Positions 22,161-51,402 of a DNA stretch of 64,000 nt are shown piece after piece; within the stretch, counting starts at the first letter, position 1; the number at the start of each line of letters is the position of its first letter. Made by a program: the position numbers and the translations under genes. The DNA comes from Gammaproteobacteria bacterium (GTDB taxonomy: Bacteria; Pseudomonadota; Gammaproteobacteria; JACCXJ01). Location: contig JBOIDF010000001.1 of the NCBI GenBank assembly GCA_050740455.1, positions 2,839 to 66,838 of the forward strand, read 5' to 3'. The notes under the pieces were generated by a model. The model was not told the origin of the DNA and ran no database searches. It saw only the letters and a list, made by a program, of their open reading frames with translations.

Positions 22161-22792
22161 TGAAGTCAGAGCTTGTGAAAAAATCGTCGCGAGCGAAGGG
22201 AGGTCGTGTTCCGCCGGCGCGCAGGAACCGGAGTGTATTTAAATACATGAGGATTCCGAGCACCGCCGGAACGCGAGATCCCGAGCGCAGCAGATTTTTT
22301 CACAAGCTCTCAGTGGCCGTCCTGGCGATCATCCTGTGTGGATATGGATGCGGATTTCACCTGCGCGGATCGAGCCCGGTGGCGCTTCGCTTCTCGGGCG
22401 TGTTTGTCGAGGCGGCCGGCGCTCCGCAAGTGGCGGCGCAATTGCGGCGGCAGTTGCAATATAATGGCGTTGTGCTAACGTCCAAACCCACCCGTGCGGA
22501 GGCTGTGGTTACGCTCAGAGACGAGCGCTTCGAGCAGCGCGTGCTTTCGGTCGATCCGCGCACCGGCAAGGTGCGCGAGTACGAGCTAGCCTATCGCGTC
22601 GATTTGATGGTGGCCGGCGCCAAGGGGCATTCCTTGCTCGCCGCGCAAAGCATCGATCTGGTGCGCGATTACACTTTCGATGAGACCGCGGCGCTTGCCA
22701 AATCCGATGAAGACCAGCTCTTGCGGCAAGAAATGATTCAAGACGCGGCCGCGACGGTGCTTAGACGGCTCGAAACCATTAAAGCGAAGTAA
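22157..22792 (+). CDS. lptE: LPS-assembly lipoprotein LptE; 5' region overlaps a MITE and the true start is uncertain (alternative ATG 22247)
   Basis: ..[12 protein letters not shown].. matches the E. coli LptE lipobox context (..AGCGWHLRD). The rest is LptE-like. The ATG overlaps the leuS stop in ATGATGA. Confidence 0.75.
22168..22310 (+). mobile_element. MITE (ERIC/Correia-like), copy A
   Basis: Terminal inverted repeats AGAGCTTGTGAAAAAATC / GATTTTTTCACAAGCTCT. Internal palindrome TGTATTTAAATACA. Lies between leuS and the lptE lipobox. Confidence 0.75.
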
Positions 22793-22980
22793 GGAAGCTC
22801 TGCAAACGTGTCGCGAGCAAGCCTAGATGCGCGAAGCAGCGGAGCGAGTCGCGAGACATATCAGGTAGATAGGCGAGCGAGGAGCGAGCACGCGAAGACG
22901 CGGGGAGCGGTCCAGGGACGGCCGCGCTTTGAGAAGCGAGGAAAGCAGATGGGCTGCGCAGTACCTTTTGCAGAGCTTCC
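22793..22980 (+). mobile_element. MITE (same family), copy B, 188 bp
   Basis: Terminal inverted repeats GGAAGCTCTGCAAA / TTTGCAGAGCTTCC. The GCGAGC-rich core is about 90% identical to copy D (51259-51402). It begins 1 nt after the lptE stop and ends 5 nt before the holA ATG. Confidence 0.85.
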
Positions 22981-22985
22981 GTAAG

Positions 22986-24059
22986 ATGACGGCAGCCCGC
23001 CCGCGGCCCCGGGCAAAGCTCAAACCCGCCGAGCTTGGGGCGCGCATCGAACGCGAGGGGCTCGAACGGCTCTATCTCATCGCGGGCGATGAGCCCTACC
23101 AGTGTCTGGAGGCGATGGACCAGATCCGATCCCAGGCGCGTGCGCTCGGCGTCACGGAGCGCGTGGTGCTCGAAGCGCAAGCGGGATTCGACTGGCAACG
23201 CCTGCGCTACGAGGCGAATCACCTGAGCCTCTTCAGCGACCGCCGGCTCATAGAGCTTACCCTCGCGCACGTTCCCCCGCGGAACGAAGGCGCGCAAGCC
23301 ATCATCGCCTATACCCAAGGGATGTCAGCGGACACCGTGGTGGTGATCCGCGCGCCCGTCCTCGATTACAGAGCAAAGCAAGGCGCATGGTACCAGGCCA
23401 TCGAAGCCGCGGGCGTGGTTGTCGAAGTCGCGCCGGTGCCGCCCGAGGCGATGCCGGACTGGATCCTGCGGCTCGGCGAACGGCGCGGTCTCATCCTGGA
23501 TCAGGAGGCGGCGATGTTCATTGCCGAGCGGGTCGAGAATAACCTGCCCGCGGCAAGTCAGGAGCTTGAGAAGCTCCGGCTTTCCTTGCCGGGCGGCAAG
23601 GCCGGTCTCGAGGACGTCGTCGCGGTGGTCACGGACAGCAGCCGTTATGACGTGTTCGCCCTAGTCAATTGCGTGTTGGAAGGGCGCCAGGCACGATCCC
23701 TGTCCGTGCTCGCGGGACTCCGCGCCGAGGGTACCGAAGCCGCGCTCGTGACCTGGTCTCTGGTGCGTGAGCTGCGGATCCTATGCCGCTTGGCTTATAA
23801 TCAGGCGCGCAAGCTTCCTTTGGAGCCCGTGTTCGAGGAATTCCGAGTCTGGGATCGGCGTAAAGCGGCCTTGAAACCGGCACTGCGGCGCCACACCGTC
23901 GCCAGCTTGCGGGAGTTGCTGCTGGCCGCTCATCAAGTAGAACGAGCCATCAAAGGCGCGAGCCCAGGAGATCCGTGGCTCATGCTGGCGGAGGTGGCGA
24001 TCGGCCTCGCCGCAAGCAATGCCTCACGACGGCAGCGGAATTACAATGTGAACGAGTGA
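22986..24059 (+). CDS. holA: DNA polymerase III subunit delta
   Basis: ..[11 protein letters not shown].. in the N-terminal region matches HolA. It follows leuS-lptE, the conserved gene order. Confidence 0.8.
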
Positions 24060-24805
24060 CCTAGATAGACCTGGCGTACGGTGTCGTTGGCGAGAACGGT
24101 CTCCGGCGCGCCCTCCGCGATGATGGTTCCTTCATTGACGATATAAGCCCGATCGCAGATCCCCAGGGTCTCGCGGACGTTGTGGTCGGTAATCAAGATC
24201 CCGATCCCGCGCGCCGCAAGCTGTTTGATGACCTTCTGAAGATCGAGCACCGAAAGCGGATCGACGCCGGCGAAGGGTTCATCGAGCATAATGAACTCGG
24301 GCTCCGCCGCCAGTGTCCGCGCGATCTCCGTGCGCCGCCGCTCGCCTCCCGACAGGGTTTCGCCCACACGATCGGACACCTGCTGAAGATGGAACTCTTG
24401 CAGCAGGCCCGTCAGCCGGCGTTCGCGCTCAACCGCATCGATGACCGATCGTATTTCCAGTACCGCCAGGACGTTTTCCCTTACCGTGAGCTTTCTGAAG
24501 ATGGAAGGCTCCTGCGGTAGATAGCCCAGTCCTAAACGCGCGCGCTGGTCCATCGGCAAGGCGGTAATGTCGCGGCGGTTGAGAAACACGGCGCCGGTGT
24601 CATTCGGCACGAGACCCACGATCATGTTGAAGCTCGTGGTCTTACCCGCGCCATTCGGACCGAGCAAACCGACGACTTCTCCGCTGTTAACCTTTAGGCT
24701 GACATCCTTGACGACCTGCCGCGACTGATACGTTTTGGAAAGGTGCCGGGCGCTGATGACGTGGGTCGATTTTTCGCCGGGTTCATTCTTTTGGTCGAGA
24801 TCCAC
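24041..24805 (-). CDS. lptB: LPS export ABC transporter ATP-binding protein LptB (putative GTG start; no canonical ATG nearby)
   Basis: ..[21 protein letters not shown].., ..[16 protein letters not shown].., ..[12 protein letters not shown].. are nearly collinear with E. coli LptB. The ORF as listed extends to 24943. Confidence 0.85.
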
Positions 24806-25358
24806 CAGCGCCGGAGCCGCGATTGGTTCCGTTTGGTTCCGTCTTTTTGGCTGGAGGAATGATGATCCGTACCCGGCCATCGTCCGTGGCCCCGTTGTCA
24901 TCGGATAGCTCGCCGGGGCGCGCCTTTCTTGCTTTAAGGACATTGCGAGCGGTATCGTAGGTCATGTGGTGGCCGGTGTAAATCTGCCCCCGTTGCACGA
25001 TTTTGACCTTGTTGGTCATATGGATCAGTTGCTCTTGCGCCTGATACCTCATGTTGAGGGCCTCGCCCTCGATATCCTCCTCCTCGTTGTCGGGGCGTTG
25101 CCGGTAAGTCGCCGGGCTGCCTTCCAAGAGCGCTTCTTTCAGCTGTTGGTCGGGCGCATAGTTCAAGGTGAGGGTGTGGCCGGTGAAGCGCGTGCTCCCT
25201 TGGATGACGATGACATTCCCGCGGTAGATCGCAACCCCTGCCTTATCGTCGATTTCCACGAAGTCTGCCGTGACTTCAATCGGTTGATCGCGATCGGTGG
25301 ACAACGCGGCGGCGGCCGTGACAAAGAATAAACCCGCCAGCAACACGCTGGAAGTCAA
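24783..25358 (-). CDS. lptA: LPS transport periplasmic protein LptA (TTG start at 25358, or GTG at 25376)
   Basis: Signal peptide ..[20 protein letters not shown], then the OstA-like fold (..[44 protein letters not shown]..). The listed ORF's extra N-terminus is encoded by the family-1 repeat. Confidence 0.8.
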
Positions 25359-25484
25359 TTTAGATTTCGCCACCACGGGGTATGCAACCCCGTGGGGCGA
25401 CCAAAAGGGAGAGCTGCGCCTCTCCCCTTTGGAAACCCCATCGCTAAGGTCCCTGCGGCAAGACCGCGGGGAATAGATTTTAAC
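25354..25484 (-). repeat. Family-1 three-hairpin element, copy 2 (between the lptC stop and the lptA start)
   Basis: The reverse complement is ~97% identical to 14501-14633. One stem mismatch is G-U compatible. Confidence 0.85.
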
Positions 25485-26064
25485 GCTTTTCGTCATAATG
25501 AGTCCGCACGTTTTTCAGCAATTCGACCAGGCCAAACGCAAGCCGCGCACGCATCCCGATTCCCCGGGTGATGGACGTGGGCGTGATGATCGTGGCGGCG
25601 CTATCGGTTTCAGCATAGCGCTTTTTGGGCAGTATCCTGAGATCGGGCGCTTGCACCTCGATCTCGCGCACGCCCTCGGGGTTTCGGCGCCACACTCTCA
25701 CGTTTCCGTACAGCAAGACGGTATCGTTGTTGGCCCCGATCCATCCCGAGTCGGCACGGGCGAACCACGGCGCCTTCGGATTATCGCTATAGAGCTCGAG
25801 GGTGGGATGAAGGAGTTGGGTGGTGTCATCCCCGAAGTGGAACATGCGCTTGGCGCGGAGCCTGCTTTCGAGCCTTCCGCGCTCGTCCATGGCGGTGCGG
25901 ACGAAGTTCTCCATGTAAGAATCCGGTTCATCCGGGCCGACCGCCTCGCGGGTGATATTCTGCTCTTCCAGGCGCTCCAGGATCCAAGCGGTGGTGCCGG
26001 CGCAAACGCTAAGTGCGATCACCCCCGGCCAGTGCTTTAGCTTGCGGAAGCTTAGAATCGTCAC
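25480..26064 (-). CDS. lptC: LPS export inner-membrane anchor protein LptC
   Basis: 194 aa with an N-terminal TM helix and LptC fold. Position is between kdsC and lptA. Confidence 0.8.
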   Translation of the reverse strand: MTILSFRKLKHWPGVIALSVCAGTTAWILERLEEQNITREAVGPDEPDSYMENFVRTAMDERGRLESRLRAKRMFHFGDDTTQLLHPTLELYSDNPKAPWFARADSGWIGANNDTVLLYGNVRVWRRNPEGVREIEVQAPDLRILPKKRYAETDSAATIITPTSITRGIGMRARLAFGLVELLKNVRTHYDEKR

Positions 26065-26077
26065 AGAAGCTGTTCTT

Positions 26078-26221
26078 AGAGGTTGTGAATAAATCTGCTG
26101 CGCATCCCGATCGCGGCGTCGCGTGCTCGCTCGCTCCTCGCCTATCTGGTTGATATGTCTCGTCGCTCACTCCGCGGCTCCTTGCGCTCGGAATGCTCGC
26201 GACGATTTATTCACAACCTCT
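26078..26221 (-). mobile_element. MITE (same family), copy C, inverted relative to B/D
   Basis: Terminal inverted repeats AGAGGTTGTGAATAAATC / GATTTATTCACAACCTCT. The core is the reverse complement of the B/D core. It fills the kdsC-lptC intercistronic gap. Confidence 0.8.
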
Positions 26222-26766
26222 TAGCTCAAGTACCGGCCGTAAAGGTTTGCGAGCGCGCCTTGCGCATCGAGGAGCAGCTCGCACAATTCGCGCACGGCGC
26301 CGCGTCCGCCGGGTTGCCGTGTCCGCCAATGCGCATGCTGACACACTAAATGGTGCGCATCGGCCACGGCAACCGCAAGTCCGGCGCGCATCATGACCGG
26401 CAAATCCGGCACATCGTCTCCCATGAACGCCGCCTGCTCGGCGCTCAAGCCGAGCTCGCGGAGCAGCGCATTGAAGATCGATAGCTTGTCGGAGGCCCCC
26501 TGGTAGATGTACCGTATCCCGAGCTCCGTCATGCGCTCTTCGACCGCCGCCGAAGCGCGTCCCGAAATCACGGCGATGTGTAAGCCGGCTTCCCGCAGCA
26601 TGGCCAGCCCCTGCCCATCGCGGGTGTGAAACAGCTTCAACTGCTCGCCTCGCTCGCCCAGGATCAGACTGCCGTCGGTCAGCACCCCGTCGACATCGAA
26701 TGCGGCGAGGCGGATCTTCGCGGCCCTGGCCTTGACCCGATGCAGCGGTTCCGCGAGGTCCGCCAT
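26221..26766 (-). CDS. kdsC: 3-deoxy-D-manno-octulosonate 8-phosphate phosphatase
   Basis: ..FDVDGVLTDG.. HAD motif I and ..FMGDDVPD.. motif. Confidence 0.85.
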   Translation of the reverse strand: MADLAEPLHRVKARAAKIRLAAFDVDGVLTDGSLILGERGEQLKLFHTRDGQGLAMLREAGLHIAVISGRASAAVEERMTELGIRYIYQGASDKLSIFNALLRELGLSAEQAAFMGDDVPDLPVMMRAGLAVAVADAHHLVCQHAHWRTRQPGGRGAVRELCELLLDAQGALANLYGRYLS

Positions 26767-26776
26767 GACGGGCGCG

Positions 26777-27775
26777 TTACAGGACTCCGGCGCGCAGTAA
26801 ATCGTGCATGTTCAGCACGCCGCGCAGATCGCTTTTTTCGTCGGCGACTAACAATGCGTTGATCTTGTGCCGCTGCATCAGGTTGAGCGCTTCGGCCGCG
26901 AGGCAGTCTTGGCCGACGGTGACGCATGCGGGCGTCATGACGCTCCGCATGCGTGCTCGATGGACGTCGACGCCGCGGTCCAGGGCGCGGCGCAGGTCGC
27001 CATCCGTGAAGATACCGGCGATCCGCAGCCCGTCCTCGACGATCGCCGTCATACCCAGGCCCTTGCGCGACATTTCCACCAGCGCGTCCCGCAACAGCGC
27101 CTCGGTGGTGACCACCGGGATCTCGTCCCCGGTATGCATGAGATCGGAAATACGCAGCAGCAGCCGCCGCCCCAATATCCCGCCCGGATGCGTCTGCGCG
27201 AAGTCCGCGGCGTTGAATCCGCGCGCCTCGAGGAGGGCGATGGCCAGCGCGTCTCCCATGGCCAGGGCCGCGGTCGTGCTCGAAGTCGGCGCCAAGCCCA
27301 AAGGACAAGCTTCTTGTGCCACGCTGACATCCAAGTTGACGGAGGCGGCGCGTGCGAGGGTCGATTCGGGCTTGCCGGTGAGAGCGATGAGCGGGATCCC
27401 TAGGCGTTTAATGAGCGGCAGCAAAACGATAAGTTCCACGGTTTCCCCGGAGTTGGACAGCGCGAGCACCACATCCTTGGTGGTGATCATGCCCATGTCG
27501 CCGTGGCTGGCCTCGCCGGGGTGAACGAAGAATGCCGGGGTGCCCGTGCTGGCCAAGGTGGCTGCGATCTTGCCGCCGATATGGCCGGACTTACCCATGC
27601 CCAATACCACGATTCTGCCCTCGCAACTCAAAAGGTAACGGCAGGCGCCGACGAACTCCGGGCCGATGCGCGCGCCGAGAGCGGCCACCGCTTGCGCCTC
27701 ATTGTCGATGACCGAACGTCCCAAGGCTTGCAGCCGTTCGCCGGCAACGCGCTCGTCATGGAGATGGTCACGCAT
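26777..27775 (-). CDS. kdsD: Arabinose-5-phosphate isomerase (SIS + tandem CBS)
   Basis: ..VVLGMGKSGHIG.. SIS domain and a C-terminal CBS pair. Precedes kdsC. Confidence 0.85.
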   Translation of the reverse strand: MRDHLHDERVAGERLQALGRSVIDNEAQAVAALGARIGPEFVGACRYLLSCEGRIVVLGMGKSGHIGGKIAATLASTGTPAFFVHPGEASHGDMGMITTKDVVLALSNSGETVELIVLLPLIKRLGIPLIALTGKPESTLARAASVNLDVSVAQEACPLGLAPTSSTTAALAMGDALAIALLEARGFNAADFAQTHPGGILGRRLLLRISDLMHTGDEIPVVTTEALLRDALVEMSRKGLGMTAIVEDGLRIAGIFTDGDLRRALDRGVDVHRARMRSVMTPACVTVGQDCLAAEALNLMQRHKINALLVADEKSDLRGVLNMHDLLRAGVL

Positions 27776-27865
27776 GAGTCAAAAAATTCCGCTACGCTAG
27801 TAGTGCTCCAAGGGCAAGAAACCCGTTTATCATTTCAAGTACACCAAACGTTGACATGAAATTCT

Positions 27866-28924
27866 ATGGTAAGTGCGCGGCATTTGCATGTGGACTACAT
27901 TACGACCGCCGTGAAAAGAAACCGGATCCCGATGCGTCACGATGATCTCAAGCTCTGGGTAACCCAGATCCTCAAGACAGGTGAGTTTCAGCTGAGCGCG
28001 GCCTCGAGCGACGCTAGCTTCCGGCACTACTGGCGGATCCGGCATCGGGATCGCTCCTATATCGTGATGGACGCGCCGCCCGAGCGGGAGACTTGCGACG
28101 CTTTCATAGACATCGCCAAACGTCTGGGAGAGGCGGGTTTGAATGCCCCCAAGGTATTGGCTGGCGATCTTGCGCGTGGGTTTTTGCTCTTAACGGATCT
28201 CGGAACCAGGCTCTACCTCGACGAACTGCAATCGGACAACGCCGGGCAGCTTTATAGCAACGCCTTGAACGCCGTCGTCGCGATGCAGGTGCGCGCCGAC
28301 GGCCGGGGACTCCCCCCTTACGATCGCGATGCTCTGATGCGGGAGATGGAGTTGTTTCGGGGATGGCTGCTAGCGAAGGAACTCGGTCTGCGCTTATCGG
28401 CCGGCCAAAACGCGTCGCTCGACGCGAGCTTTGCATTTTTGGCGGAATCGGCCTTGTCGCAACCTCGAGTCTTCGTGCATCGCGATTTCCATTCCCGAAA
28501 CCTATTGGTCAGCGTGGGCAATGATCCCGGGATCCTCGATTTCCAGGACGCGGTGATCGGTCCTGTCACTTATGACGTTGTTTCTTTACTACGGGATTGC
28601 TACATTCGCTGGCCACGGGAGGAGATCGAGGCCTGGGCCGCCGAGTATTACCGGCGGGCGCTTGAACATGGCATTTTAAGTGGCGTGAGCCTCACGGCGT
28701 TTTACCGCTGGTTCGATCTGATGGGCGTGCAGCGGCATCTCAAGGCCAGCGGAATATTCGCGCGTTTATGGCATCGCGACGCTAAGCGCGGCTACCTCAA
28801 TGATATTCCTAGAACGCTCGCGCACATTGCCGATGTGAGCGTGCGCTACCCGCAATTGGATTCGCTGCATGGCCTGCTGGTCGCAGAAGTCATACCTGCG
28901 ATTAACGAACGGTACGCGCGATGA
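27866..28924 (+). CDS. amgK: Aminoglycoside-phosphotransferase-fold kinase, likely anomeric MurNAc/GlcNAc kinase (AmgK-like)
   Basis: ..VFVHRDFHSRNLL.. kinase catalytic loop. The stop overlaps the start of the downstream nucleotidyltransferase, the amgK-murU arrangement. Confidence 0.55.
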   Translation: MVSARHLHVDYITTAVKRNRIPMRHDDLKLWVTQILKTGEFQLSAASSDASFRHYWRIRHRDRSYIVMDAPPERETCDAFIDIAKRLGEAGLNAPKVLAGDLARGFLLLTDLGTRLYLDELQSDNAGQLYSNALNAVVAMQVRADGRGLPPYDRDALMREMELFRGWLLAKELGLRLSAGQNASLDASFAFLAESALSQPRVFVHRDFHSRNLLVSVGNDPGILDFQDAVIGPVTYDVVSLLRDCYIRWPREEIEAWAAEYYRRALEHGILSGVSLTAFYRWFDLMGVQRHLKASGIFARLWHRDAKRGYLNDIPRTLAHIADVSVRYPQLDSLHGLLVAEVIPAINERYAR

Positions 28925-29589: not shown

Positions 29590-29643
29590 CCCGAAGCGAT
29601 GCAGCTTGGTATCTGCATTGCTTCCGGTTAGTTTGATGCAGTA

Positions 29644-30795: not shown

Positions 30796-31017
30796 CTACT
30801 ACCAGCGGGGCGGGTAAGCCTCATGTGCCTCACCCATGGTAGAGCAGATTTACGGCCAGACCCCCGCGGGTATAGAGCGCGTCGCGGTCTCATAGGTCCC
30901 GATGGCGCCGAGCATCACATGCAGCGCTGAGCAGAGATCACCCCTTGCGTCAATGCATGAGGTCTCGGAAGACCTATGCCTGTACCCGCCGTTCGTCACT
31001 CGATCGTCCGCGTCGAG

Positions 31018-33821: not shown

Positions 33822-33873
33822 CCGAAGCGCCTTACTGAGTTCCAGGGCGAGATCCTCTTACAGCGGACCGCCC

Positions 33874-37485: not shown

Positions 37486-38024
37486 CCGGCTTCGCGGCGT
37501 TGGTTGTGGCGCGCTTTCAGGCGCCGGAGGAGGTGCAGCCGCCACAGGCACTGAACGCTAAAATAGCCGACCACAGCGCTGGCGGCCCCGAGAAGTAGAC
37601 ACCCGAGCAAGAACGGCGCCCAACTTTGGACGAGCGTGCTTGTGACCCAGTCGATGGTCGGGTCGAAATCCGCGTTGAGGGCCGGTAGGCCCAGCAACCA
37701 GGCGCCTATCTTATAGGCAATCACGCTGAAAGGAACGACAGTGACAGGATTCGTTGCCCAGGAAGACAGGACCAGGACCGGGAGGTTCACCCGCAACGCG
37801 ACGGCGGAGACGGCCGCGAGCGGGGTGTGCACGGGTAGCGGGATGAAGGCGATGAAAAGACCGGTGGCGACGGCCCAGGACGCGGAGCGGCGATTAATAT
37901 GCCATAAGCTCGGATCATGCAAGCGATGGCCGAGAAAGCTGACGAAACGGTTACCGAAGAGCTTATGCTTGGCGGGCTGGTAACGCTGAAAGAATTCCTT
38001 GGGATGCACGCTGCTGATCTCCAT
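37479..38024 (-). CDS. DUF2062-family membrane protein
   Basis: Start taken at [19 protein letters not shown].. (the listed ORF extends to 38222). It lies beside comEC and lolD, a common DUF2062 context. Confidence 0.5.
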
Positions 38025-38080
38025 TGGGAGGCCGTTCGTTCCCGGCGCGCCGGCTGCGACGCTAGCGCTATACTGATGGT

Positions 38081-40399
38081 GTGGATTCTCGTCGTCAAGG
38101 AAGACGTCGCGTGCGTACGGCAACGCTAGCTTTTCTGCTCGGCGTCTTAGCGCTATACCCGTTTCCCGATCTGCCCGATGCCCGCTTGGGCGCCGTCGCC
38201 TTGCCGCTGCTCGCGGCGTCAATCCGATTTCACTCCCTGCGCGTTCCGGCGTGGTTTGCGCTGGGGTTTGCCTGGGCCTTGCTCCGGGGGTCCTCTATCC
38301 TCGCGGCCGGGCTACCGCCGGCGCTCGAAGGCGAGCCTCTCGTCATCGAGGGAACCGTGGCCGGTCTTCCGCGCGCCTACGAGCGTGCGCTCAACTTCGA
38401 TATGGACGTGGCGGCGGTAACCGGAATGGGTCGGGACTGGCCCTCCCCCGGGCGCGTGCGCCTGAGCTGGTACGGCCGGGAGCGCATCCTCGTTCCCGGG
38501 GAGACCTGGCGATTGGCGGTGAAACTGAAACGTCCGCACGGATTCATGAATCCCGGCGGCTTCGATTATGAAGGCTGGTTGTTTCAGCACCGCATCCGGG
38601 CGCTCGGTCATGTCATCGATAGCCACCGAAACCGGCGCTTGGAGGCCGCTCGCGGCGCCCCGGTCGATCGCTTGCGCCAGCGGCTGGCGCTGAAGCTCGC
38701 GGGGGTGGCGCGGCAGTCATCCCAGGGTAATGTATTGACGGCCCTGGTGATCGGGACGCAGGACGCCATCGGCGCGGAACAATGGCAGGTCTTCAACCGC
38801 ACCGGCACCTCGCATTTGGTCTCGATCTCCGGCCTGCACATCGGGCTCATCGCGCTCCTTGGCTTTTGGGTGGGCCGGTGGCTCTGGTCCCTGCCGGGAT
38901 TTACCGTCCTGTACGTTGCCGCCCCGCGTGTCGGCGCGCTCTGCGCAACGCTGGCCGCGCTCATGTACTCGGGCCTCGCGGGCTTTTCGGTGCCCACGCA
39001 GCGTTCCTTCATCATGGTCGCGGTATTGATGTCCGGGACCATCGTAAACCGCTTATTCAAGACCATCGACCTCTGGTTCATCGCGCTATTGCTGGTGCTG
39101 ATCCTGGATCCGTTTAGCGTGCTGGCGCCGGGCTTCTGGCTGTCCTTCGGGGCAGTGGCCTTGATCCTTTATGGGATGGGCGGGAGGGTCGCGCCTTCCG
39201 GCCTCTGGTGGCGGATCGCGCGCCTGCATGTCGTGGTGGCGATCGGCTTGACCCCGGTGCTGTTGCTGATCTTCGGCCAGAATCCCACCGTGGGTCCGGT
39301 CGCGAATGTCCTCGCGGTACCGTGGGTAAGCGTGGTGGCGGCGCCGTTGGCCTTGGCCGGCACGGCCTTATGTTTTGTCTGGGAGTGGGCGGGGATCGCC
39401 TTGCTGGATCTGGCGCTTAAAAACCTGGAGGGGCTTTGGGTTTATTTACAGTATCTATCGGAACTCGACTATGCCACCTGGGTGCGGGCCGTTCCGGTGC
39501 CTTGGATCGGTGGGGCGGCGCTGATCGGCGCTTTGATCGTGCTCGCACCGCGCGGCATCCCGGCCCGTTGGCTGGGGCTCGTGTGGTTGCTCCCGCTCCT
39601 AATCACACCGCCACCGCGCCCGAAAGAAGGAGAGCTATGGTTCACTTTGCTGGATGTCGGGCAGGGCCTTTCCGCGGTCGTGCAAACCCGCGACCGCACC
39701 TTGGTATACGACACCGGGCCGAAGTTCAATGAGCGCTTCGACGCCGGCCGCGCGGTGTTAGTCCCCTTTCTCAGGCAACACGGCATCGCGCATGTCGATA
39801 CGCTCCTCATCAGCCACGGCGACAGTGATCACACGGGCGGGCTCGGCAGTCTGCTGGCGGAAGTCTCGGTGGGACGAATTCTCGCGAACGGACCTATCGG
39901 CGGCCGGCGGGTCTCGGTGTGTCGAGGCGGTCAGCGCTGGCGCTGGGGCGAGGCGAACTTTTCGGTGCTGCATCCCGCACTCGATGCGAAGGGTTCCGAC
40001 AACAACCGTTCCTGTATCCTCAAACTTTCCCTCGGGGACAGGTCCGTATTGCTACCGGGCGATATCGAGGCCGAGGCGGAACACGAGTTATTGAAGCACC
40101 ACCGGGAGAGCCTGAAGGCGGACATTTTGGTGGCCCCCCATCACGGGAGTAAAACCTCGTCCACGGCGAGCTTTATCGATGCGGTCGCCCCCGACTACGT
40201 GCTTTTCGCCGTGGGCTATCGAAACCGCTATCGCTTTCCTGATGCCGATGTTCTGCGCGACTATCGGGCGCGGGGCGCCATCCCGTTGCTGAGCGCCGAG
40301 GAAGGCGCGATTCGGTTTCGCTTCGGCCCTGGGGCCCGCCACGCTCCGGAGCTCTACCGTAAAGAGACGAGGCGGTTTTGGCGGGCCGATGCCCCTTGA
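38081..40399 (+). CDS. comEC: DNA internalization-related competence protein ComEC/Rec2
   Basis: 772 aa, polytopic membrane N-terminus plus a C-terminal MBL domain (..ISHGDSDHTGG..). Confidence 0.85.
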   Translation: MDSRRQGRRRVRTATLAFLLGVLALYPFPDLPDARLGAVALPLLAASIRFHSLRVPAWFALGFAWALLRGSSILAAGLPPALEGEPLVIEGTVAGLPRAYERALNFDMDVAAVTGMGRDWPSPGRVRLSWYGRERILVPGETWRLAVKLKRPHGFMNPGGFDYEGWLFQHRIRALGHVIDSHRNRRLEAARGAPVDRLRQRLALKLAGVARQSSQGNVLTALVIGTQDAIGAEQWQVFNRTGTSHLVSISGLHIGLIALLGFWVGRWLWSLPGFTVLYVAAPRVGALCATLAALMYSGLAGFSVPTQRSFIMVAVLMSGTIVNRLFKTIDLWFIALLLVLILDPFSVLAPGFWLSFGAVALILYGMGGRVAPSGLWWRIARLHVVVAIGLTPVLLLIFGQNPTVGPVANVLAVPWVSVVAAPLALAGTALCFVWEWAGIALLDLALKNLEGLWVYLQYLSELDYATWVRAVPVPWIGGAALIGALIVLAPRGIPARWLGLVWLLPLLITPPPRPKEGELWFTLLDVGQGLSAVVQTRDRTLVYDTGPKFNERFDAGRAVLVPFLRQHGIAHVDTLLISHGDSDHTGGLGSLLAEVSVGRILANGPIGGRRVSVCRGGQRWRWGEANFSVLHPALDAKGSDNNRSCILKLSLGDRSVLLPGDIEAEAEHELLKHHRESLKADILVAPHHGSKTSSTASFIDAVAPDYVLFAVGYRNRYRFPDADVLRDYRARGAIPLLSAEEGAIRFRFGPGARHAPELYRKETRRFWRADAP

Positions 40400-40450
40400 C
40401 CCCGCCGGATCCCGGAGGCGGGGTTGAGCGGTCGCCGCTCGGGCGCCCGC

Positions 40451-41002: not shown

Positions 41003-41165
41003 GACAACTCTAACATAGTCTAAGGGTGGACCTGAAACAACCAGGGGTCAGGTCTCCTATCTTGCATACATTCAAACGATGATTACTACGGCATGTGTCG
41101 TATTCTACGGTGAATCGTGAAGACTATTGAAACGGCCAACGCCGTTGGGTGCAGGTTAACCACTC

Positions 41166-41870: not shown

Positions 41871-41952
41871 GAGCGTTCACAATGGGTGCTTAGCAATCCT
41901 CAAACCGTATAATATACGATGACACCCTACCGGCGAGTCCGCACAGCTCACA

Positions 41953-42243: not shown

Positions 42244-42251
42244 GGCTTTGG

Positions 42252-42977: not shown

Positions 42978-42986
42978 CGCCCTTCG

Positions 42987-44459: not shown

Positions 44460-45697
44460 TCGCGGCGAGCGCAAGCCCCCTGTCCTTGTTCGCCGGCTAC
44501 GGGATCGAGCTCGAGTACATGATTGTCGATTCTGCGAGCTTGGATGTGTTAGCGATCGCCGATAAGCTTATCCATGCCGTGACCGGCGATTATCGATCCG
44601 AGGTCGAGCAAGGAGAGCTTGCCTGGTCCAACGAGATGGTGCTGCATGTTATCGAGATCAAGACCAATGGACCGGCCGGCGCGCTCGAGCCCTTGCCGGC
44701 GCTGTTCCAACGCGACATCACGCGCGTCAACGAGTTACTCGCACCGCATGAAGCCTGCCTGATGCCCGGGGCGATGCATCCTTGGATGGATCCGCGCAGC
44801 GACACCCGGCTTTGGCCGCACGAGTATAACCCCGTCTACGAGGCCTACGAGCGGATCTTCGGCTGCCAGGGACATGGGTGGTCGAATCTGCAAAGCGTGC
44901 ACCTTAACCTGCCGTTCGCGGGCGATGCTGAGTTCGCCCGGTTGCATGCCGCCATTCGCGTGCTGCTCCCGGTGTTGCCTGCCCTCGCCGCAAGCTCGCC
45001 CATCGTCGAAGGACAATGCACCGGCATGCTCGACTACCGGCTCGAAGCCTATCGGTTAAACGCGCGCAAGATCCCCTCGATCACCGGGCGCGTGATCCCC
45101 GAAACCGTGTCGAGCCGCGGAGATTACGAGACCGGGGTCCTCGGCCCGATGTACCGCGATATTGCGCCCTCCGATCCGGACAGCATTCTGCGGCACGAGT
45201 GGCTAAACTCGCGCGGCGCCATCGCGCGCTTCGACCGTTCGGCGATTGAAATCCGCGTCCTCGATATTCAGGAATGTTCGCTGGCGGACTTGGCGGTCCT
45301 GGCCGCGATCGTGAGCGCGTTGCAGCGCCTCGCCGCCGAAGACTGGGGCGATCTCCAGGCACAACAAGCGCTTACGACCGAGGAGCTTGAGGCTATCCTG
45401 CTGGAAACCGCGCGTAGCGGCGAACAGGCGGTCATCGACAATACGCGCTTCCTGCGGGTGGTGAGGTTTCCGGATCGGCGTTGCGAGGCGCGGGATCTCT
45501 GGCATCATCTGATCGAGGCGGCGCCCGCGGGCGAGATCTGGCGCACACCTCTGCGGACGATCCTGCGCTCGGGCCCGCTCGCGCGGCGGCTGCTGCGCGC
45601 CGCGGGTAAGGAGCCGAAACGCTCGCGCCTCATCGCGGTTTACGCCGAGCTTTGCCGCTGCCTGGCTGCGGGACACCAGTTCCTTGGCCTCGATTGA
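44456..45697 (+). CDS. Carboxylate-amine ligase, GCS2/YbdK (gamma-glutamylcysteine-synthetase-like) family
   Basis: ..YGIELEYMIVD.. is the N-terminal signature of COG2170 ligases. It overlaps the ATP-grasp stop by 4 nt. Confidence 0.7.
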   Translation: MIAASASPLSLFAGYGIELEYMIVDSASLDVLAIADKLIHAVTGDYRSEVEQGELAWSNEMVLHVIEIKTNGPAGALEPLPALFQRDITRVNELLAPHEACLMPGAMHPWMDPRSDTRLWPHEYNPVYEAYERIFGCQGHGWSNLQSVHLNLPFAGDAEFARLHAAIRVLLPVLPALAASSPIVEGQCTGMLDYRLEAYRLNARKIPSITGRVIPETVSSRGDYETGVLGPMYRDIAPSDPDSILRHEWLNSRGAIARFDRSAIEIRVLDIQECSLADLAVLAAIVSALQRLAAEDWGDLQAQQALTTEELEAILLETARSGEQAVIDNTRFLRVVRFPDRRCEARDLWHHLIEAAPAGEIWRTPLRTILRSGPLARRLLRAAGKEPKRSRLIAVYAELCRCLAAGHQFLGLD

Positions 45698-46400
45698 TTG
45701 CGTTATTGTCACCTGCGAGCACGCGAGCCGGCGCGTGCCGTTCCGCTACCGTGCGTTATTTCGTGGTCAGGAAGCGGTGCTGAAAACTCATCGAGGGTCC
45801 GATCTCGGCGCGCTACGGCTCGCGCGCGAGCTTGCGACGGCGCTGGAAGCACCGCTCTTCGCCGGGAGCGTAAGTAGGCTCCTAATCGATCTGAATCGCT
45901 CCTTACATCACCTGAAGGTGTACTCCGCGATCACGCGGGCTTGTACCGAGAACGACCGGCGGCGGCTCGCCGCGAATTATTACCTGCCGTACCGGAATGC
46001 GGTGGAACAGTGGATCGCGCACCGCGCCCGCCGAGGCCGCACCGTTTTGCACCTTTCCATCCATAGCTTCACGCCGGTTTTGGACGGCCAGGTACGGCAT
46101 GCCGATATCGGGCTTCTTTACGATCCCCGGCGGGCGTTGGAACGAACGCTCTGCGGCGCTTGGCGCCGGGCCCTTTGCAGGGCGGCGCCTGCGCTTACGC
46201 TACGGCTAAATTACCCTTATCGCGGTAAGACGGACGGCTTTACGGCATACCTCCGCCAGCGGTTCCCTTCTAGCGCTTATCTCGGGGTCGAAATAGAAGT
46301 CAACCAAACGCTTGTCCATAGCGGCTGGAAGCGGCTACGACAGTTGCTTCGCGCGACACTCAAGGAAACTCTTTGCAGCATGCTTCCATCGCCTGTCTAA
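45684..46400 (+). CDS. N-formylglutamate amidohydrolase (FGase) family protein
   Basis: ..VIVTCEHASRRVP.. and ..LHLSIHSFTP.. are FGase motifs. It overlaps the upstream stop. Confidence 0.65.
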   Translation: MASIDCVIVTCEHASRRVPFRYRALFRGQEAVLKTHRGSDLGALRLARELATALEAPLFAGSVSRLLIDLNRSLHHLKVYSAITRACTENDRRRLAANYYLPYRNAVEQWIAHRARRGRTVLHLSIHSFTPVLDGQVRHADIGLLYDPRRALERTLCGAWRRALCRAAPALTLRLNYPYRGKTDGFTAYLRQRFPSSAYLGVEIEVNQTLVHSGWKRLRQLLRATLKETLCSMLPSPV

Positions 46401-46504
46401 TCGCTGTTTAATAGCAACTGCGACGCCCCGATCAGCTCCGCCCGAGCCCGGGTGCAGTGTGCACGGCTTTTGCCCTTGATGAGCATCGGGAGACTAAACT
46501 AATC

Positions 46505-47974
46505 ATGACCAAGACTGCAGCGATTCCATTCCAGGCATTACTCGGCGGCCTCTTTCTAGCCTTGGGAGCCTTGATTCCGGCGGCTTCCGCGGCCACCCCG
46601 CGGGCTGACACCGCTTCCAGGAGCATCCGCGACCCGTTCCCCCAGCCGCCGGAACTGCGAGATGCGGTGGATTTTTGGCGGCGGGTGTTCGCCGTTTGGC
46701 GACGCGACCAGGTCGTTTTGCACGATACCGAAAACCTAGGCATCGTCTACGACATCGTTGAACTTCCCGGGCCGGTGGCGGACGCACAGACCCCACGCCA
46801 ACAAGCCTACGTGCGTGCCCGGCGCCAATCCTTGGAGCGCGGATTGCGGGAGCTGGCGCGCCGGGTCAAGTTTAGGATGGGCTTGAACAAAGAACAGCAG
46901 CGTCTGCTTGGCGTGATCCGTCACGGCGCCGGCACCCATGTCCTGGCGGGCGCGGATTCCCGGGTACGGGCTCAGCGCGGTATGCGCGAGCGGTTCCTGA
47001 AGGGTCTGGAGATCAGCGGCCGCTATGACCGGCTCATGCGCGCTATATTCCGCGACGCGGCTTTGCCCGAGGATCTCGCGCTCCTACCCCACATCGAATC
47101 GTCGTTTGTTAACCATGCACGCTCCTCGGCGGGCGCCGCCGGGATGTGGCAGTTCATGCCGGCGACCGGCCGGCGGTTCCTCCGCATCAACAGCGCGGTC
47201 GATGAACGCTTCGACCCGATCCTGGCCGCGCACGGCGCCGCGCGCTATTTGCGGAACGCCTACGATGATCTCGGCGACTGGGCCCTGGCCATCACTTCTT
47301 ATAACCACGGCGTCGGCGGGATGGTGCGCGCTCAGCGGCAGTTCGGGCGTGACTTCGGCCGCATCGTCCGGAGCTACCGCGGCAAGACCTTCGGATTTTC
47401 CTCACGTAACTTTTACGCGGAATTTCTGGCTGTCCGTTCCATCCTTGATGCGGAGCGGCGCTATTTTCCCGAAGGGGTGCGCTACCAACGTCCCCTAGAC
47501 CACCAACGCATCCGGTTGAAACAAGCGCTGCCCCTCACGCGACTAGCAGCGAGTTACGGCGTTCACCGCGAGCTTCTCGTTGACCTTAACCCGGCCTGGA
47601 CACGGCGGGCGGCGCGCGGACTCGTTTCCCTACCGGCGGGTTCCGAGATCTGGTTGCCGAGCGGCGCTCGGGTTGCGAGTACGCGGACTTACGCAGAATC
47701 GGTATCACCGGCGGGCCGGGAGTTCATCCGCCCGAGCGGAGAATTCCTGCGCGCGGGTTTGGTCTACAACCCGATAGAGTTTTCGCCGCGCCCCACCGAA
47801 ACGCCGCGGCGGAAGCGGTCTAAGGAACGTACCCATATCGTGCGCAGAGGCGAGTGGCCCATTTTGATCGCAAGCCGATACGACGTACCGTTGAAGGATC
47901 TTATGGTTTTGAACGATATCGGGCGCCGGGGCATCATCCGGCCCGGACAGCGATTGCGTATTCCGGCGCGTTAA
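46505..47974 (+). CDS. mltD: Membrane-bound lytic murein transglycosylase (SLT domain + C-terminal LysM), MltD-like
   Basis: ..ESSFVNHARSSAGAAGMWQFMPATG.. is the SLT catalytic region. The C-terminal ..HIVRRGEWPILIASRYDVPLKDLMVLNDI..IRPGQRLRIP is a LysM domain. Confidence 0.7.
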   Translation: MTKTAAIPFQALLGGLFLALGALIPAASAATPRADTASRSIRDPFPQPPELRDAVDFWRRVFAVWRRDQVVLHDTENLGIVYDIVELPGPVADAQTPRQQAYVRARRQSLERGLRELARRVKFRMGLNKEQQRLLGVIRHGAGTHVLAGADSRVRAQRGMRERFLKGLEISGRYDRLMRAIFRDAALPEDLALLPHIESSFVNHARSSAGAAGMWQFMPATGRRFLRINSAVDERFDPILAAHGAARYLRNAYDDLGDWALAITSYNHGVGGMVRAQRQFGRDFGRIVRSYRGKTFGFSSRNFYAEFLAVRSILDAERRYFPEGVRYQRPLDHQRIRLKQALPLTRLAASYGVHRELLVDLNPAWTRRAARGLVSLPAGSEIWLPSGARVASTRTYAESVSPAGREFIRPSGEFLRAGLVYNPIEFSPRPTETPRRKRSKERTHIVRRGEWPILIASRYDVPLKDLMVLNDIGRRGIIRPGQRLRIPAR

Positions 47975-47996
47975 GGAAAATAAATCAAACCGCGCC

Positions 47997-50900
47997 ATGA
48001 CGCTTAAGGCACGTAAAATATTGGTGAGGATCTTGTCCTGGAGCGCGCTGGCCGGGCTCGTAACCGTCGGGGCGCATTTCCTTGCCGAGGAAATGGATTC
48101 GTCGGCGCTCCAATCCCGCTATCTTTCTTCCTTAGGCACGCAACTGACTTATACCCTGGAACCGGGATCGAGCGCGCGAATTCGCTTTCCCGAGACCGGA
48201 CCCTATGATTTGCGGCTCGGTTATGTCGGCCTCCCGGCCTTTCTTAAGCGTCTGCGGCAGTTCGGTTACGAGATCAAAAGGCAAGCACGCTTCTCTCCCA
48301 TGCTGGAGCGGGTGTTCGACGCCGGATTGTTTACCGCCTACCGGGAGAAAACCCAGGGGGGGCTCCGGATCTTCGATCGCGACGATCGCCTGCTTTTCAA
48401 AGCGATGTACCCGGCGCGTGTCTACCCGGACTTCGGGTCGATTCCACCGCTCGTGCTGCACACCTTGCTTTACATCGAAAACCGGGAACTGCTGGATGAG
48501 AACAAGCGCCATAAGAATCCGGCGATAGAATGGGACCGCTTCGGACGGGCGGTGCTCGAAGGACTGGCGCAAAAACTGGGCGCCAATATCCATGTCACCG
48601 GGGGCAGCACGCTGGCCACACAACTGGAGAAATACCGTCATTCGCCGGGTGGCCAGACAGCTTCTGTCGGGGACAAGCTACGGCAGATGGCGAGCGCCTC
48701 GTTGCGCGCTTACCTCCAGAGTCCCGACACCTTCGAGTCCCGGCGCGGGATCGCGCTTGCCTATGTGAATACCGTCCCGCTCGCGGCCGCCCGCGGTTAC
48801 GGCGAAGTTCACGGCCTCGGCGATGGCCTGTGGGTCTGGTACGGCCAAGATTTTTCGGCGGTGAACGGTCTGTTGCGCGAGGAAGGTATCGGCGGCGCTG
48901 GGCTCGCGGAGCGGGCAGCCGCCTACCGCGACACACTGTCGCTGCTATTGGCCCAGCGGCGTCCAGCGTACTTCCTCGGGCGCGGTCATAAGGCGCTGCA
49001 ACGCTTAGCCGACAGCTACCTGCGGCTCCTAGCGACTGATGGGATCATCCCAGCCGCTTTGCGTGATGCCGCGCTCAGCAGACGCAACGTGCCGCACCAC
49101 GGACCGGTGGAGAAAGCGCAACGAAAATTTACCGATCATAAAACCGAGACCGTGCTTCGCTCTCGTTTAGCCCAGGCATTGGGTGTCTCGCGCTTGTACG
49201 ATCTGGATCGGCTGGATCTGAGCGCAAAAAGCACCATCGATAAATCAGCGCAGCAGGCCGTGACGCAGGCTTTGCGAAATCTTTCTGTTGCGGAACACGC
49301 CCACGCAGCGGGGCTCGTTGGGTTTCGCTTGTTTGGCGAAGGCAACGATTTAAGCCGTGTCGTGTATAGCATGATCCTATTCGAGCGCAGCCCGAAGGGT
49401 AATCTACTCCGGGTGCAGACCGATACTTACGCAAACCCGCTCGACATCAACGAGGGCGTGCGACTGGATCTCGGATCGACCGCCAAGCTGCGTACTCTAG
49501 TGCATTATCTCGAGCTCGTGGCCGAGGTGCATCGGCGCTACGCGGGCGGCAAGGGCAAGGAACTTAATAAGCCCGACGTTCATGCGCGCGACCGCCTATC
49601 GCAGTGGGTGGTCGACCAGTTGCGATCAAACCCGCATCTGACGCTCTCCGCGCTACTGGACGCCGCTTTGGAACGGCGGTATTCGGCCAACCCCGGGGAA
49701 CGATTTTTCACCGGCGGAGGGCTGCATAGTTTCGTCAATTTCAACGGCGCGGATAACGGCAAGATCCTGTCCGTCCGGGAGGGATTGCGCGATTCCGTAA
49801 ACCTTGTTTTTATCCGCATAATGCGCGACATCGTGCGTTACCATCTGTACAAACCCGGGGGCGTGGGACGTAAGACCGAATCCGCCGACGGCGAGTGGCG
49901 CCGCAAGTATCTTGAGCGTTTCGCCGACCAGGAGGGCCAAGTTTTTCTGCGCCGCTTCTATGCGAAGTACCGCGGCAAAAAACCGGGCCAAGTGATGGAC
50001 TTGCTCACCGAGAGCGTCTACCCTACCGCGGTGCGTCTGGCTACCGTCTATCGCTCGGTTTTTCCCGAGCGCACCTTGCGCGCGTTTAGCGGATACCTGC
50101 GCCGCCGCGTCGATGCTGCTCACCTTTCGGAGCGCAAGGTCAAACACCTCTATGATAAGTATTCTCCCGAACGCTACAACCTGCACGACCGCGGTTATAT
50201 AGCCCACATCCATCCGCTGGAGCTCTGGCTTGTGACTTACCTCGTAGCACATCCCGCCGCGCCCTTCGCGGACGTTGTTGCGGCGAGCACGCAACAACGC
50301 CAGGAGGTGTATCAATGGCTGTTTAAGACCCGCCGTCAGCATGCCCAGAACAAACGCATTCAAGGCCTGCTAGAAATAGAGGCTTTCGGAGACATTCACA
50401 GCGCCTGGCAACGCCTCGGATATCCGTTTCAGACCCTCACGCCTTCTTATGCTTGCGCTATCGGCGCCTCGGCGGATCGTCCCGGGGCGCTGGCGGAGCT
50501 CGTTGGGATCCTGCTTAATGGGGGCGTGCGCTATCCGACGGTCCGCTTCGAATCCCTGCACTTCGCGGCGGACACGCCTTATGAGACAGTTATCGAGCGG
50601 CCGCTCGCGCATGGACAAGCGGTGCTTGCGCCCGAGGTCGCGGCCGCGGCGCGCGCCGCGCTCATCGATGTGGTTGAGAACGGCACGGCGCAGAGGCTTA
50701 AGGGGGCAATTAAAGACGCTCACGGCGTACCATTGGTTGTCGCCGGCAAGACCGGCACCGGCGATCATCGCCGAGACGTTTATGGCGCGGGCGGACGCTT
50801 GATCGAGTCGCGCGTTCTAAACCGCACGGCGACCTTCGCCTTTACGCTTGGCGAACGGTTCTTCGGCGCCATCACCGCGTTTGTGTCGGGTCCGGAAGCG

Positions 50901-51068
50901 GCACGTTATCGCTTTACGAGCGCGCTACCGGTGCAGGTTTTGAAATCCCTTGCGCCGATCCTAGAGCCTGTCATCGCGCGCGGAGAGCCTGCGGCAGTTC
51001 GGGGAATCCTCGCCACTAAAGATAACCCATCGGTGCAGGCGATGATCAAGGGAGCGCACGAAGGTTAA
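47997..51068 (+). CDS. Large class-A-PBP-like protein (divergent GT51 transglycosylase + transpeptidase motifs), 1023 aa
   Basis: N-terminal TM helix, a GGSTLATQLEKY GT51 motif, a later STAK (SxxK) and AGKTGTG (KTG) motif. Confidence 0.6.
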   Translation: MTLKARKILVRILSWSALAGLVTVGAHFLAEEMDSSALQSRYLSSLGTQLTYTLEPGSSARIRFPETGPYDLRLGYVGLPAFLKRLRQFGYEIKRQARFSPMLERVFDAGLFTAYREKTQGGLRIFDRDDRLLFKAMYPARVYPDFGSIPPLVLHTLLYIENRELLDENKRHKNPAIEWDRFGRAVLEGLAQKLGANIHVTGGSTLATQLEKYRHSPGGQTASVGDKLRQMASASLRAYLQSPDTFESRRGIALAYVNTVPLAAARGYGEVHGLGDGLWVWYGQDFSAVNGLLREEGIGGAGLAERAAAYRDTLSLLLAQRRPAYFLGRGHKALQRLADSYLRLLATDGIIPAALRDAALSRRNVPHHGPVEKAQRKFTDHKTETVLRSRLAQALGVSRLYDLDRLDLSAKSTIDKSAQQAVTQALRNLSVAEHAHAAGLVGFRLFGEGNDLSRVVYSMILFERSPKGNLLRVQTDTYANPLDINEGVRLDLGSTAKLRTLVHYLELVAEVHRRYAGGKGKELNKPDVHARDRLSQWVVDQLRSNPHLTLSALLDAALERRYSANPGERFFTGGGLHSFVNFNGADNGKILSVREGLRDSVNLVFIRIMRDIVRYHLYKPGGVGRKTESADGEWRRKYLERFADQEGQVFLRRFYAKYRGKKPGQVMDLLTESVYPTAVRLATVYRSVFPERTLRAFSGYLRRRVDAAHLSERKVKHLYDKYSPERYNLHDRGYIAHIHPLELWLVTYLVAHPAAPFADVVAASTQQRQEVYQWLFKTRRQHAQNKRIQGLLEIEAFGDIHSAWQRLGYPFQTLTPSYACAIGASADRPGALAELVGILLNGGVRYPTVRFESLHFAADTPYETVIERPLAHGQAVLAPEVAAAARAALIDVVENGTAQRLKGAIKDAHGVPLVVAGKTGTGDHRRDVYGAGGRLIESRVLNRTATFAFTLGERFFGAITAFVSGPEAARYRFTSALPVQVLKSLAPILEPVIARGEPAAVRGILATKDNPSVQAMIKGAHEG

Positions 51069-51258
51069 GCTGCGCTCCGCGCGATTGGCGCCCGTGTCGA
51101 AACGTCGAGCGCGCGAATTCGCGTACATTCACGCCGCGCTACATGCGCGGTTTTTCGCGGCTTCGTGGCATGACCCGCGAAATACTGCGGGAGTTGTGGA
51201 CGGTTGGTCGGATCGCTCGACCCATCGTTCCATGCGACAGGAGGCGAGCTAAAACTAA

Positions 51259-51402
51259 GGAAGCTCTGCAAAAGTGTCGCGAGCAAGCTCAAATGCGCGA
51301 AGCCGCGGAGCGAGTCGCGAGACATATCAGTTAGATAGGCGAGCGACGAGCGAGCACGCGACAAAGCAGATGGGCTGCGCAGTAACTTTTGCAGAGCTTC
51401 CC
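51259..51402 (+). mobile_element. MITE (same family), copy D
   Basis: Terminal inverted repeats GGAAGCTCTGCAAAAG / CTTTTGCAGAGCTTCC. The core is ~90% identical to copy B. Confidence 0.85.

Follow-up and report, generated by a model that had tools for sequence, protein, structure and literature searches.

How does a repeated hairpin element come to lie exactly at the gene junctions of essential operons? This question is raised by a 64-kb stretch of a gammaproteobacterial contig, referred to here as the window. An earlier note, made from the letters alone, had described an ERIC/Correia-like repeat that sits between the cistrons of the leuS-lptE-holA and kdsDC-lptCAB operons and beside a gene for a penicillin-binding protein (PBP), always co-oriented with transcription, and had taken its precise placement as a sign of selection at the RNA level. 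[quoted passage not shown] Their placement is best explained by target choice together with purifying selection, and a modest RNA-level constraint on the elements is possible.

The four full copies and two solo ends described previously are real, and the full copies measure 141 to 188 bp. Copy A (22169–22309, plus strand), which belongs to type 1 and is 141 bp long, is bounded by GAGCTTGTGAAAAAATC and has GGAGTGTATTTAAATACATGAGG as its variant centre, while copy C (26079–26220, minus strand) is a type-1 MITE of 142 bp at the kdsC stop codon. Copy B (22793–22980, plus strand) is a type-2 MITE of 188 bp at the lptE stop codon, and copy D (51259–51401, plus strand) represents the canonical 143-bp type-2 form. 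Terminal inverted repeats of 16–19 bp, perfect or near-perfect, bound all four copies. With up to three mismatches allowed, the type-1 end gave seven matches in the window, compared with 0.07 expected: 16994 and 17949 (the solo ends), 22169 and 22293 (copy A), 26079 and 26204 (copy C), and one chance-level match. The type-2 end GGAAGCTCTGCAAAAG was located at 22793 and 22965 (copy B) and at 51259 and 51386 (copy D). A core common to all full copies had also been proposed. Copies B, C, and D do share a 25-nt core, GAGACATATCAnnnAGATAGGCGAG (0 expected), with the asymmetric pattern GAGACA-TATC-AnnnA-GATA-GGCGAG, at 22853–22877 (plus strand), 26137–26161 (minus strand), and 51319–51343 (plus strand), respectively, but copy A lacks it and carries a different centre. 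Copy B is the 143-bp form enlarged by about 45 bp of inserted sequence in its interior (roughly 22896–22940). A profile search, using a profile built from about 100 family members, detected no further copies in the window.

Each full copy is enclosed by a short direct duplication: TCA at 22166–22168 and 22310–22312 for copy A, GTAA at 22789–22792 and 22981–22984 for copy B, TTA (TAA on the gene strand) at 26076–26078 and 26221–26223 for copy C, and CTAA at 51255–51258 and 51402–51405 for copy D. The same duplications recur throughout the family. Identical 3-bp flanks were present in 30 of 39 type-1 copies, with TNA in 29 (TGA 17, TCA 10, TTA 1, TAA 1). A metagenome scan for type 2 added at least 120 loci with 61 unique sites, and a perfect 4-bp YTAR duplication was observed at 32 of these sites (CTAA 18, TTAG 8, CTAG 3, TTAA 3); the element was 143 bp long at 52 sites and 188–189 bp long at three.

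These duplications show that the elements insert at T-S-A or YTAR, and they suggest cut-or-copy transposition by a transposase supplied in trans, probably an IS5-family DDE enzyme. Type 1, which starts with GAG, duplicates 3 bp (T-S-A, as TGA or TCA), and type 2, which starts with GGAAG, duplicates the 4-bp YTAR, like IS5. One of the stop codons TGA, TAA, and TAG forms or lies within each of these targets, so the left duplication rebuilds the stop and leaves the upstream protein unchanged. Accordingly, the TAA within the GTAA at 22789–22792 is the lptE stop, and the kdsC stop is likewise one copy of its duplication, which means that the upstream stop is restored at both B and C. In a G+C-rich genome, insertions would survive only where they are harmless, and would thus pile up on stop codons and gene 3′ ends. 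Inside operons, the element would presumably be read through and co-transcribed as a long hairpin.

The gene identities given earlier were borne out by NCBIfam, which confirmed leuS, lptE, holA, lptA, lptC, kdsC, and kdsD. Copy B adjoins the stop codon of lptE, and its far end is 5 nt away from the holA ATG (22986), as had been noticed; copy C, on the minus strand, separates kdsC from lptC, whose GTG start is at 26064. Since the duplicated T-S-A and YTAR sequences contain stop codons, such junction-precise placement follows from the target sites, and placement and orientation do not support RNA-level selection in the way that had been argued. The claim that every full copy is intercistronic holds for B and C; copy A is inside lptE, and 190 bp separate copy D from the end of the PBP-like gene upstream of it (51068). 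No family was matched by the small open reading frames beyond copy D, and the first gene that can be recognised after them runs on the other strand, so that an operon context for copy D is not shown. The PBP-like gene itself (47997–51068, 1023 residues) matches transglycosylase and transpeptidase models only weakly and partially, and therefore encodes an atypical, long PBP1-like protein.

The contigs of close relatives (L118–L121, L243, and L244) are syntenic with the window, with LptE proteins of 87–92% identity, and allow the same sites to be compared. The leuS/lptE site is empty in L120 and L121, where ATGATGAAGTCA is directly followed by GTGG (AAGTCA-GTGG), and in L118 (AAGTCA-ATGG), whereas L244 is filled as in the window. 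In L243, an A-type element occupies the same lptE TCA in inverted orientation and is still in frame. In lptE of L119 (L119 2888–2950), we observed a 12-nt in-frame footprint, GA + CAAGCTC + TCA. This remnant adds DKLS to the signal peptide and resembles an excision or palindrome-deletion footprint in which the frame was kept. The lptE/holA site, which holds the 188-bp element in the window, is empty in five relatives (L118–L120, L243, and L244), reading AAGTAACGTGACGG / AAGTAACGTGACG; L244 has copy A, yet its B site is empty. At the kdsC/lptC site, L120 is empty, L118 has a type-2 element at the same TTAG, and L119 has a solo type-2 end. Judged from these contigs, all of the three operon sites vary between relatives, the kdsC stop has been struck independently by type 1 (window) and type 2 (L118), and the lptE site exists in both orientations. 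The copies therefore differ between close relatives (empty, footprint, inverted, other element type), and such a difference, if it had no effect on expression, was what the earlier note itself had named as speaking against its proposal.

The holA start adds a further difference. Its initiation region (22981–22988) reads GTAAGATG in the window and GTAACGTG in the five relatives without copy B; the start codon is an ATG preceded by GA in the window, compared with a GTG preceded by C in those relatives. The change from GTG to ATG could be compensation for lost translational coupling with lptE, in which case copy B would be tolerated rather than useful.

Copy A illustrates how an insertion within an essential gene might be harmless. 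It lies in frame after lptE codon 4 (MMKS, then 48 residues), is free of stops, and its translated segment begins with ELVKK directly after MMKS. The lptE reading frame including copy A (22157–22792, plus strand) encodes 211 residues, compared with 161–167 in element-free relatives, and the LptE profile match begins at residue 58. Homologues with 87–92% identity begin with MMKS[VLM]AVLAIILCG and have lengths of 161–164 residues. Two of the homologues (P0005 and P0001) have the extra segment, and a third (P0007) reads MLKSDKLSVAVL, matching the 12-nt footprint of L119. In lipoproteins, the signal peptide is removed at the lipobox cysteine. The 144-nt insertion would lengthen the positively charged n-region ahead of this site. 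Because 141 + 3 bp is a multiple of three, contains no stop, and falls within the cleaved signal-peptide part, mature LptE should be unaffected and the extension, as far as the sequence allows us to judge, should be harmless. The variant centre of copy A (CCGGAGTGTA...TACATGAGGAT, 22225–22255) recurs in copies from metagenome-assembled genomes (MAGs) of Thiotrichales (L085 2362–2507) and in L244 (1940–2130). It holds GGAG and then ATG, and this ATG inside the element is the annotated LptE start in P0005 (MRIPSTAG...). Copy A may thus offer an internal LptE start site and mislead gene-start annotation.

Beyond the window, a scan of one genome per species located the exact core pattern in at least 117 loci. 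The hosts included Nitrosomonas, Rhodocyclaceae, Accumulibacter, Burkholderiales, Halothiobacillus, Guyparkeria, Thiotrichales, Chromatiales, Porticoccaceae, Tepidiphilus, and one Geobacter MAG (L019). The interiors are homologous across these lineages, while the outer ends differ (GAGnnTGTGAA, GGAAnCnCTG, CAGnnnGTTGAAAAA, and GGGCACCTCGAAAAA), and one interior is found with at least four end types and two duplication lengths. Copy D is 93–97% identical to copies in other gammaproteobacterial MAGs, which suggests recent activity. The IS5 group of insertion sequences makes a 4-bp YTAR duplication and has inverted repeats beginning with GGAAG, and the IS1031/IS427-like groups of ISfinder have a 3-bp TNA duplication and GAG ends. 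The type-2 end GGAAGCTCTGCAAAAG is identical at 11 of 16 positions, including the GGAAG start, to the IS5 end GGAAGGTGCGAATAAG, as read from E. coli K-12. The type-1 copies, with their TNA duplications and GAGnnTGTGAA ends, fit this description of the IS1031/IS427-like groups. We found no consistently open reading frames across the common-core copies. Searches of copies C and D against a plasmid collection (blastn) and of the core pattern in viral contigs gave no match, and Rfam gave none over the whole window by gathering or E-value threshold (the sole sub-threshold match was to sX9, 27 bits versus 44). The literature that we searched contained no description of the family. It is widespread in beta- and gammaproteobacterial MAGs, and is unusual in joining one conserved interior to several kinds of end.

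To locate the elements relative to genes, we carried out a census of about 155 sites, in which the coding strand of each flank was assigned by a local hexamer-based call and is approximate. Convergent gene ends outnumbered divergent starts by 21:4 in the first census and 9:2 in the second. In the first census, the distance from stop codon to core showed spikes at the arm length (59–60 nt on the left and 57–58 nt on the right), and the stop codon coincided with the duplication for about 20 of the 60 left-hand genes and 17 of the 49 right-hand ones; the second census yielded 12 and 11 such genes. The stop of the flanking gene is therefore the duplication itself in about one-third of the sites beside gene 3′ ends. 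Such a pattern would be expected if the target includes a stop codon and damaging insertions are lost.

The orientations were less uniform than the window suggests. All four window copies are co-oriented with their upstream gene, as had been reported, but 4/4 alone is not significant (two-sided p = 0.125). At sites with co-directional flanks, the ratio of co-oriented to anti-oriented copies was 28:17 in the first census and 11:6 in the second (pooled 39:23, p = 0.056), which identifies the description “always co-oriented” as a small-sample impression. In tight operons, where the nearest stop is no more than 40 nt upstream and the nearest start no more than 80 nt downstream, the ratio reached 32:14 under a lenient rule, or 29:11 without three ambiguous sites (p = 0.006), and 20:9 under a strict winner-takes-all rule (p = 0.06). 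At all other stop-adjacent sites it was 30:27 (Fisher p = 0.17). The orientation is thus not fixed, and an excess of co-oriented copies in tight operons, of about 2:1, may be real but is insecure, with p between 0.006 and 0.06 according to the rule for calling genes. When orientation was scored against the gene that supplies the stop, the ratios were nearly even (20:17 and 12:11).

The hairpin described in the earlier note is a consistent property of the family. RNA folding predicted a long hairpin for every window copy on either strand, with z scores from −3.3 to −11. RNAalifold, applied to 105 distinct copies, returned 37 pairs, 28 of them with compensatory changes. In this alignment, 92.1% of the cells were paired, compared with 72.7% in shuffles and 32–42% with slid partners; cells changed on both sides numbered 814 versus 256 in shuffles, and the covariation score was 0.527 versus 0.185. 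All 15 pairs of helix 1 showed compensatory change across subfamilies. The inner helices covary like the ends, as in columns 35–121 (GC 56, AU 40) and 50–100 (GC 59, CG 32), and the helix closing the core is built from many different, unrelated sequences (GGGCC/GGCCC, CACCC/GGGTG, CTCCC/GGGAG, and GGATGC/GCATCC). A hypervariable core loop was considered and rejected, as the loop is GGT in 41 of 52 type-2 copies. The exact core served as the search key, so its invariance is partly a matter of ascertainment. The copies are related by descent, and secondary copies within the same loci show decayed cores.

The two strands are not equivalent. In 76 of 105 copies, the predicted fold is more stable for the sense strand than for the antisense strand (mean −60.8 versus −57.6 kcal/mol, p = 2.6e-8), and the consensus fold gave −30.8 versus −18.4 kcal/mol. 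Among the predicted pairs, about 211 cells are G-U and about 81 are A-C. The sense strand of the inner part is purine-rich (G 0.36, A 0.27, C 0.275, T 0.09), and the GC skew averages +0.14, with no negative value in 105 copies. A count of mismatches between each arm and the reverse complement of the other had given more A-C than G-U; it is contradicted by the structure and energy results and was discarded as an alignment artefact. A constraint on arm pairing and an intrinsic polarity thus exist, and they would fit RNA function, single-stranded DNA intermediates, subterminal protein binding, or hairpin-templated repair alike.

Several points weigh against the transposon explanation. Searches of the window and about 240 loci for end pairs 0.6–3.5 kb apart disclosed no transposase partner; what they yielded were pairs of MITEs, matches due to chance, and a single 1628-bp unit whose open reading frame does not encode a transposase, and tblastn with IS5 InsH gave 0 matches over the same sequences. 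The assignment to IS5 is based on duplication length and sequence, a modest similarity of the ends, and the ISfinder group definitions. TGA and YTAR also occur inside genes, making target choice alone insufficient, and purifying selection has to be invoked. The home-made hexamer gene model behind the census is imperfect: the codon-model and greedy-ORF hexamer gene callers (ORF, open reading frame) missed lptE and lptA in the window and were replaced by the local strand calls. Finally, the strong inner-helix covariation, the better folding of the sense strand, and the conservation of the core may reflect a constraint other than binding by the transposase, and there is the co-orientation excess of about 2:1 in tight operons, which is not secure.

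The 1628-bp unit (L131 6257–7884) is bounded by type-2 ends and a perfect TTAG duplication, and encodes a 261-residue protein that is not a transposase. The type-2 ends may be able to move passenger DNA.

The explanation closest to the earlier note holds that the sense-strand hairpin acts in cis, as an RNase III/E processing site, a stabiliser, or a stop-start bridge for translational coupling, and that orientation and position were selected for this purpose. The better folding of the sense strand, the G-U excess, the doubly changed pairs, the orientation ratio in tight operons compared with other sites, and the holA start codon are all what such a role might produce. However, close relatives that share the gene order have no element at these junctions, L243 carries the opposite orientation at the same lptE site, 9 to 14 copies in tight operons are anti-oriented, and orientation is even relative to the gene whose stop is used. 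Covariation of the arms would likewise be expected from transposase binding at both ends or from hairpin-templated quasi-palindrome repair; moreover, the G-U count is biased by the prediction of pairs on the sense strand, and the copies are phylogenetically related. We therefore regard a selected cis-acting role as unlikely, and the strand-specific features (sense folding, covariation, and the asymmetric core) as compatible with a mild constraint, with no proof of RNA function. A role as an intrinsic terminator or promoter cassette was rejected, because the type-1 T run is not free but base-paired with the A run of the opposite end in the predicted fold, and copies A, B, and C contain no consensus promoter or terminator sites.

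A related and similarly doubtful idea is that the shared interior is a functional module rather than filler, rendering the MITE “operon-compatible” in the sense direction. The purine-rich sense strand, the invariant core, the freely covarying closing helix, and the maintenance of the hairpin by compensatory changes would accord with such a module, which could possibly act through stop-start hairpin bridging, avoidance of Rho-dependent polarity, or a defined RNase site.

Orientation might also be filtered without any positive function of the element. If the antisense transcript, untranslated and rich in pyrimidines and in C, loads Rho, anti-oriented insertions in operons would be purged by polarity. 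The composition of the sense strand, with more G than C and a skew that is never negative, implies that the antisense RNA has more C than G, and the orientation excess is seen solely where a downstream co-directional gene is close. Nevertheless, the proposal is pure inference, much of the region is base-paired, which disfavours Rho loading, and the excess it would account for is of borderline significance; we consider it improbable. Mobilisation as REP/BIME- or IS200/IS605-type palindromes, moved in single-stranded form by an HUH enzyme (RAYT or TnpA-Y1), is highly improbable: the strong palindromes, the asymmetry of strand folding, and the GTAG or GCAG near the right end of many copies recall such elements, but these 141–143-bp elements, far from 20–40 nt, have true terminal inverted repeats with identical 3-/4-bp duplications whose central base is the same on both sides rather than complementary, HUH-moved elements are not known to make duplications, and no RAYT gene was found nearby, although no search aimed at RAYT was made.

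Recently mobile, stop-targeting MITEs thus remain the preferred explanation, and we compared the family with known elements of this kind. IS5-derived bacterial MITEs are alike in their terminal inverted repeats, YTAR or 3-bp duplications, and GGAAG/GAG ends, and are also non-coding, dispersed in many copies, and found at filled versus empty sites. They usually have conserved ends and a variable interior, an arrangement that is reversed here. The description as ERIC/Correia-like is apt with respect to the MITE character, the long hairpins, and the operon setting, but not with respect to membership. The ERIC/IRU elements of enterobacteria are intergenic hairpin MITEs of about 127–140 bp that are co-transcribed in operons; however, they produce a TA duplication instead of T-S-A/YTAR, and their hosts differ from the environmental beta- and gammaproteobacterial lineages that carry the present family. 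We rejected ERIC membership on the duplication length (3–4 bp, not TA) and because copy D found no match (blastn) in 5,426 E. coli genomes. In the account that a review (PMC2229807) gives of De Gregorio 2005, the effect of Yersinia ERIC on upstream mRNA stability depends on orientation. The Correia/NEMIS elements of Neisseria are likewise abundant hairpin MITEs, of 100–155 bp, with size variants, located in or beside operons, and RNase III has been proposed to act on the long double-stranded stems of their RNA (PMC2229807; PMC10969869). They differ in their TA duplication, in unrelated ends of 24–26 bp, and in an IHF site in the long form; by eye, the centre of the elements described here does not fit the IHF consensus WATCAANNNNTTR. 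Membership in Correia/NEMIS was rejected on the duplication type and the end sequences, which are unrelated by eye, and membership in REP/BIME because 141-bp elements with identical flanking duplications contrast with 20–40-nt palindromes without duplication. Copy A resembles RPE (Rickettsia) and YPAL (Yersinia) in being a palindromic repeat in frame within a conserved protein gene; like copy A, the YPAL repeat at locus YPO1552 supplies part of a signal peptide (PMC2229807; PMC10969869). The RPE and YPAL sequences are unrelated to the family, and here just one of the four window copies is intragenic. Chunjie, a MITE from Geobacter uraniireducens that differs in its length of 178–235 bp, was set beside the family by description; the family has one match in a Geobacter MAG (L019), so that the two may be related.

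The two solo ends are remnants of decayed type-1 elements. The first (16983–17010, plus strand) retains only the right end (GCAGCAGATTTTTTCACAAGCTC), followed by CCA. The second (17949–17995, plus strand), which adjoins the stop of an amidohydrolase gene (17985–19436, minus strand), retains, of the left arm, the terminal repeat and some 30 nt more (GAGCTTGTGAAGAAATCGTCAGCGACCGAGAGC...), preceded by CCA; in L120, CAGAGCTTG alone is retained at this place. The two ends face each other across about 940 bp with CCA on the inner side of each, in an “inside-out” arrangement. Between them, within 16983–17995, lies a brnT/brnA-like toxin-antitoxin pair (17118–17432 and 17410–17691, minus strand). This cassette is 98% identical to that of L120, compared with about 94–95% for the neighbouring DNA, and L118 has no cassette there. 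Two compositional features were also observed elsewhere in the window. The first 10 kb (1–10000) has a G+C content of 0.51–0.58, compared with about 0.62 in the rest, and could be a foreign island, and the 2-kb bin 38001–40000 has an unusually strong AT skew of −0.26 at a G+C content of 0.65.

The positions in the essential leuS-lptE-holA and kdsDC-lptCAB operons, which look designed, would thus arise simply from a stop-codon target and a rebuilt stop. Uncultured gammaproteobacteria of soil and caves, nitrifiers, and other beta- and gammaproteobacteria appear to carry the family in abundance and with recent activity. In these hosts, gene starts will be mis-called by annotation pipelines, as with the LptE start MRIPST inside the element. 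The lptE site provides a natural series within an essential gene (empty, filled, inverted, and footprint) and documents that a lipoprotein signal peptide can tolerate an insertion of 48 residues. If the interior is indeed a functional module, it would have let one interior spread through beta- and gammaproteobacteria and Geobacter while swapping ends for different IS5-family transposases, and would yield the co-orientation of about 2:1 within operons. Should the core and the orientation excess prove functional, the family would offer a tractable model of how MITEs turn harmless or useful within polycistronic mRNAs.

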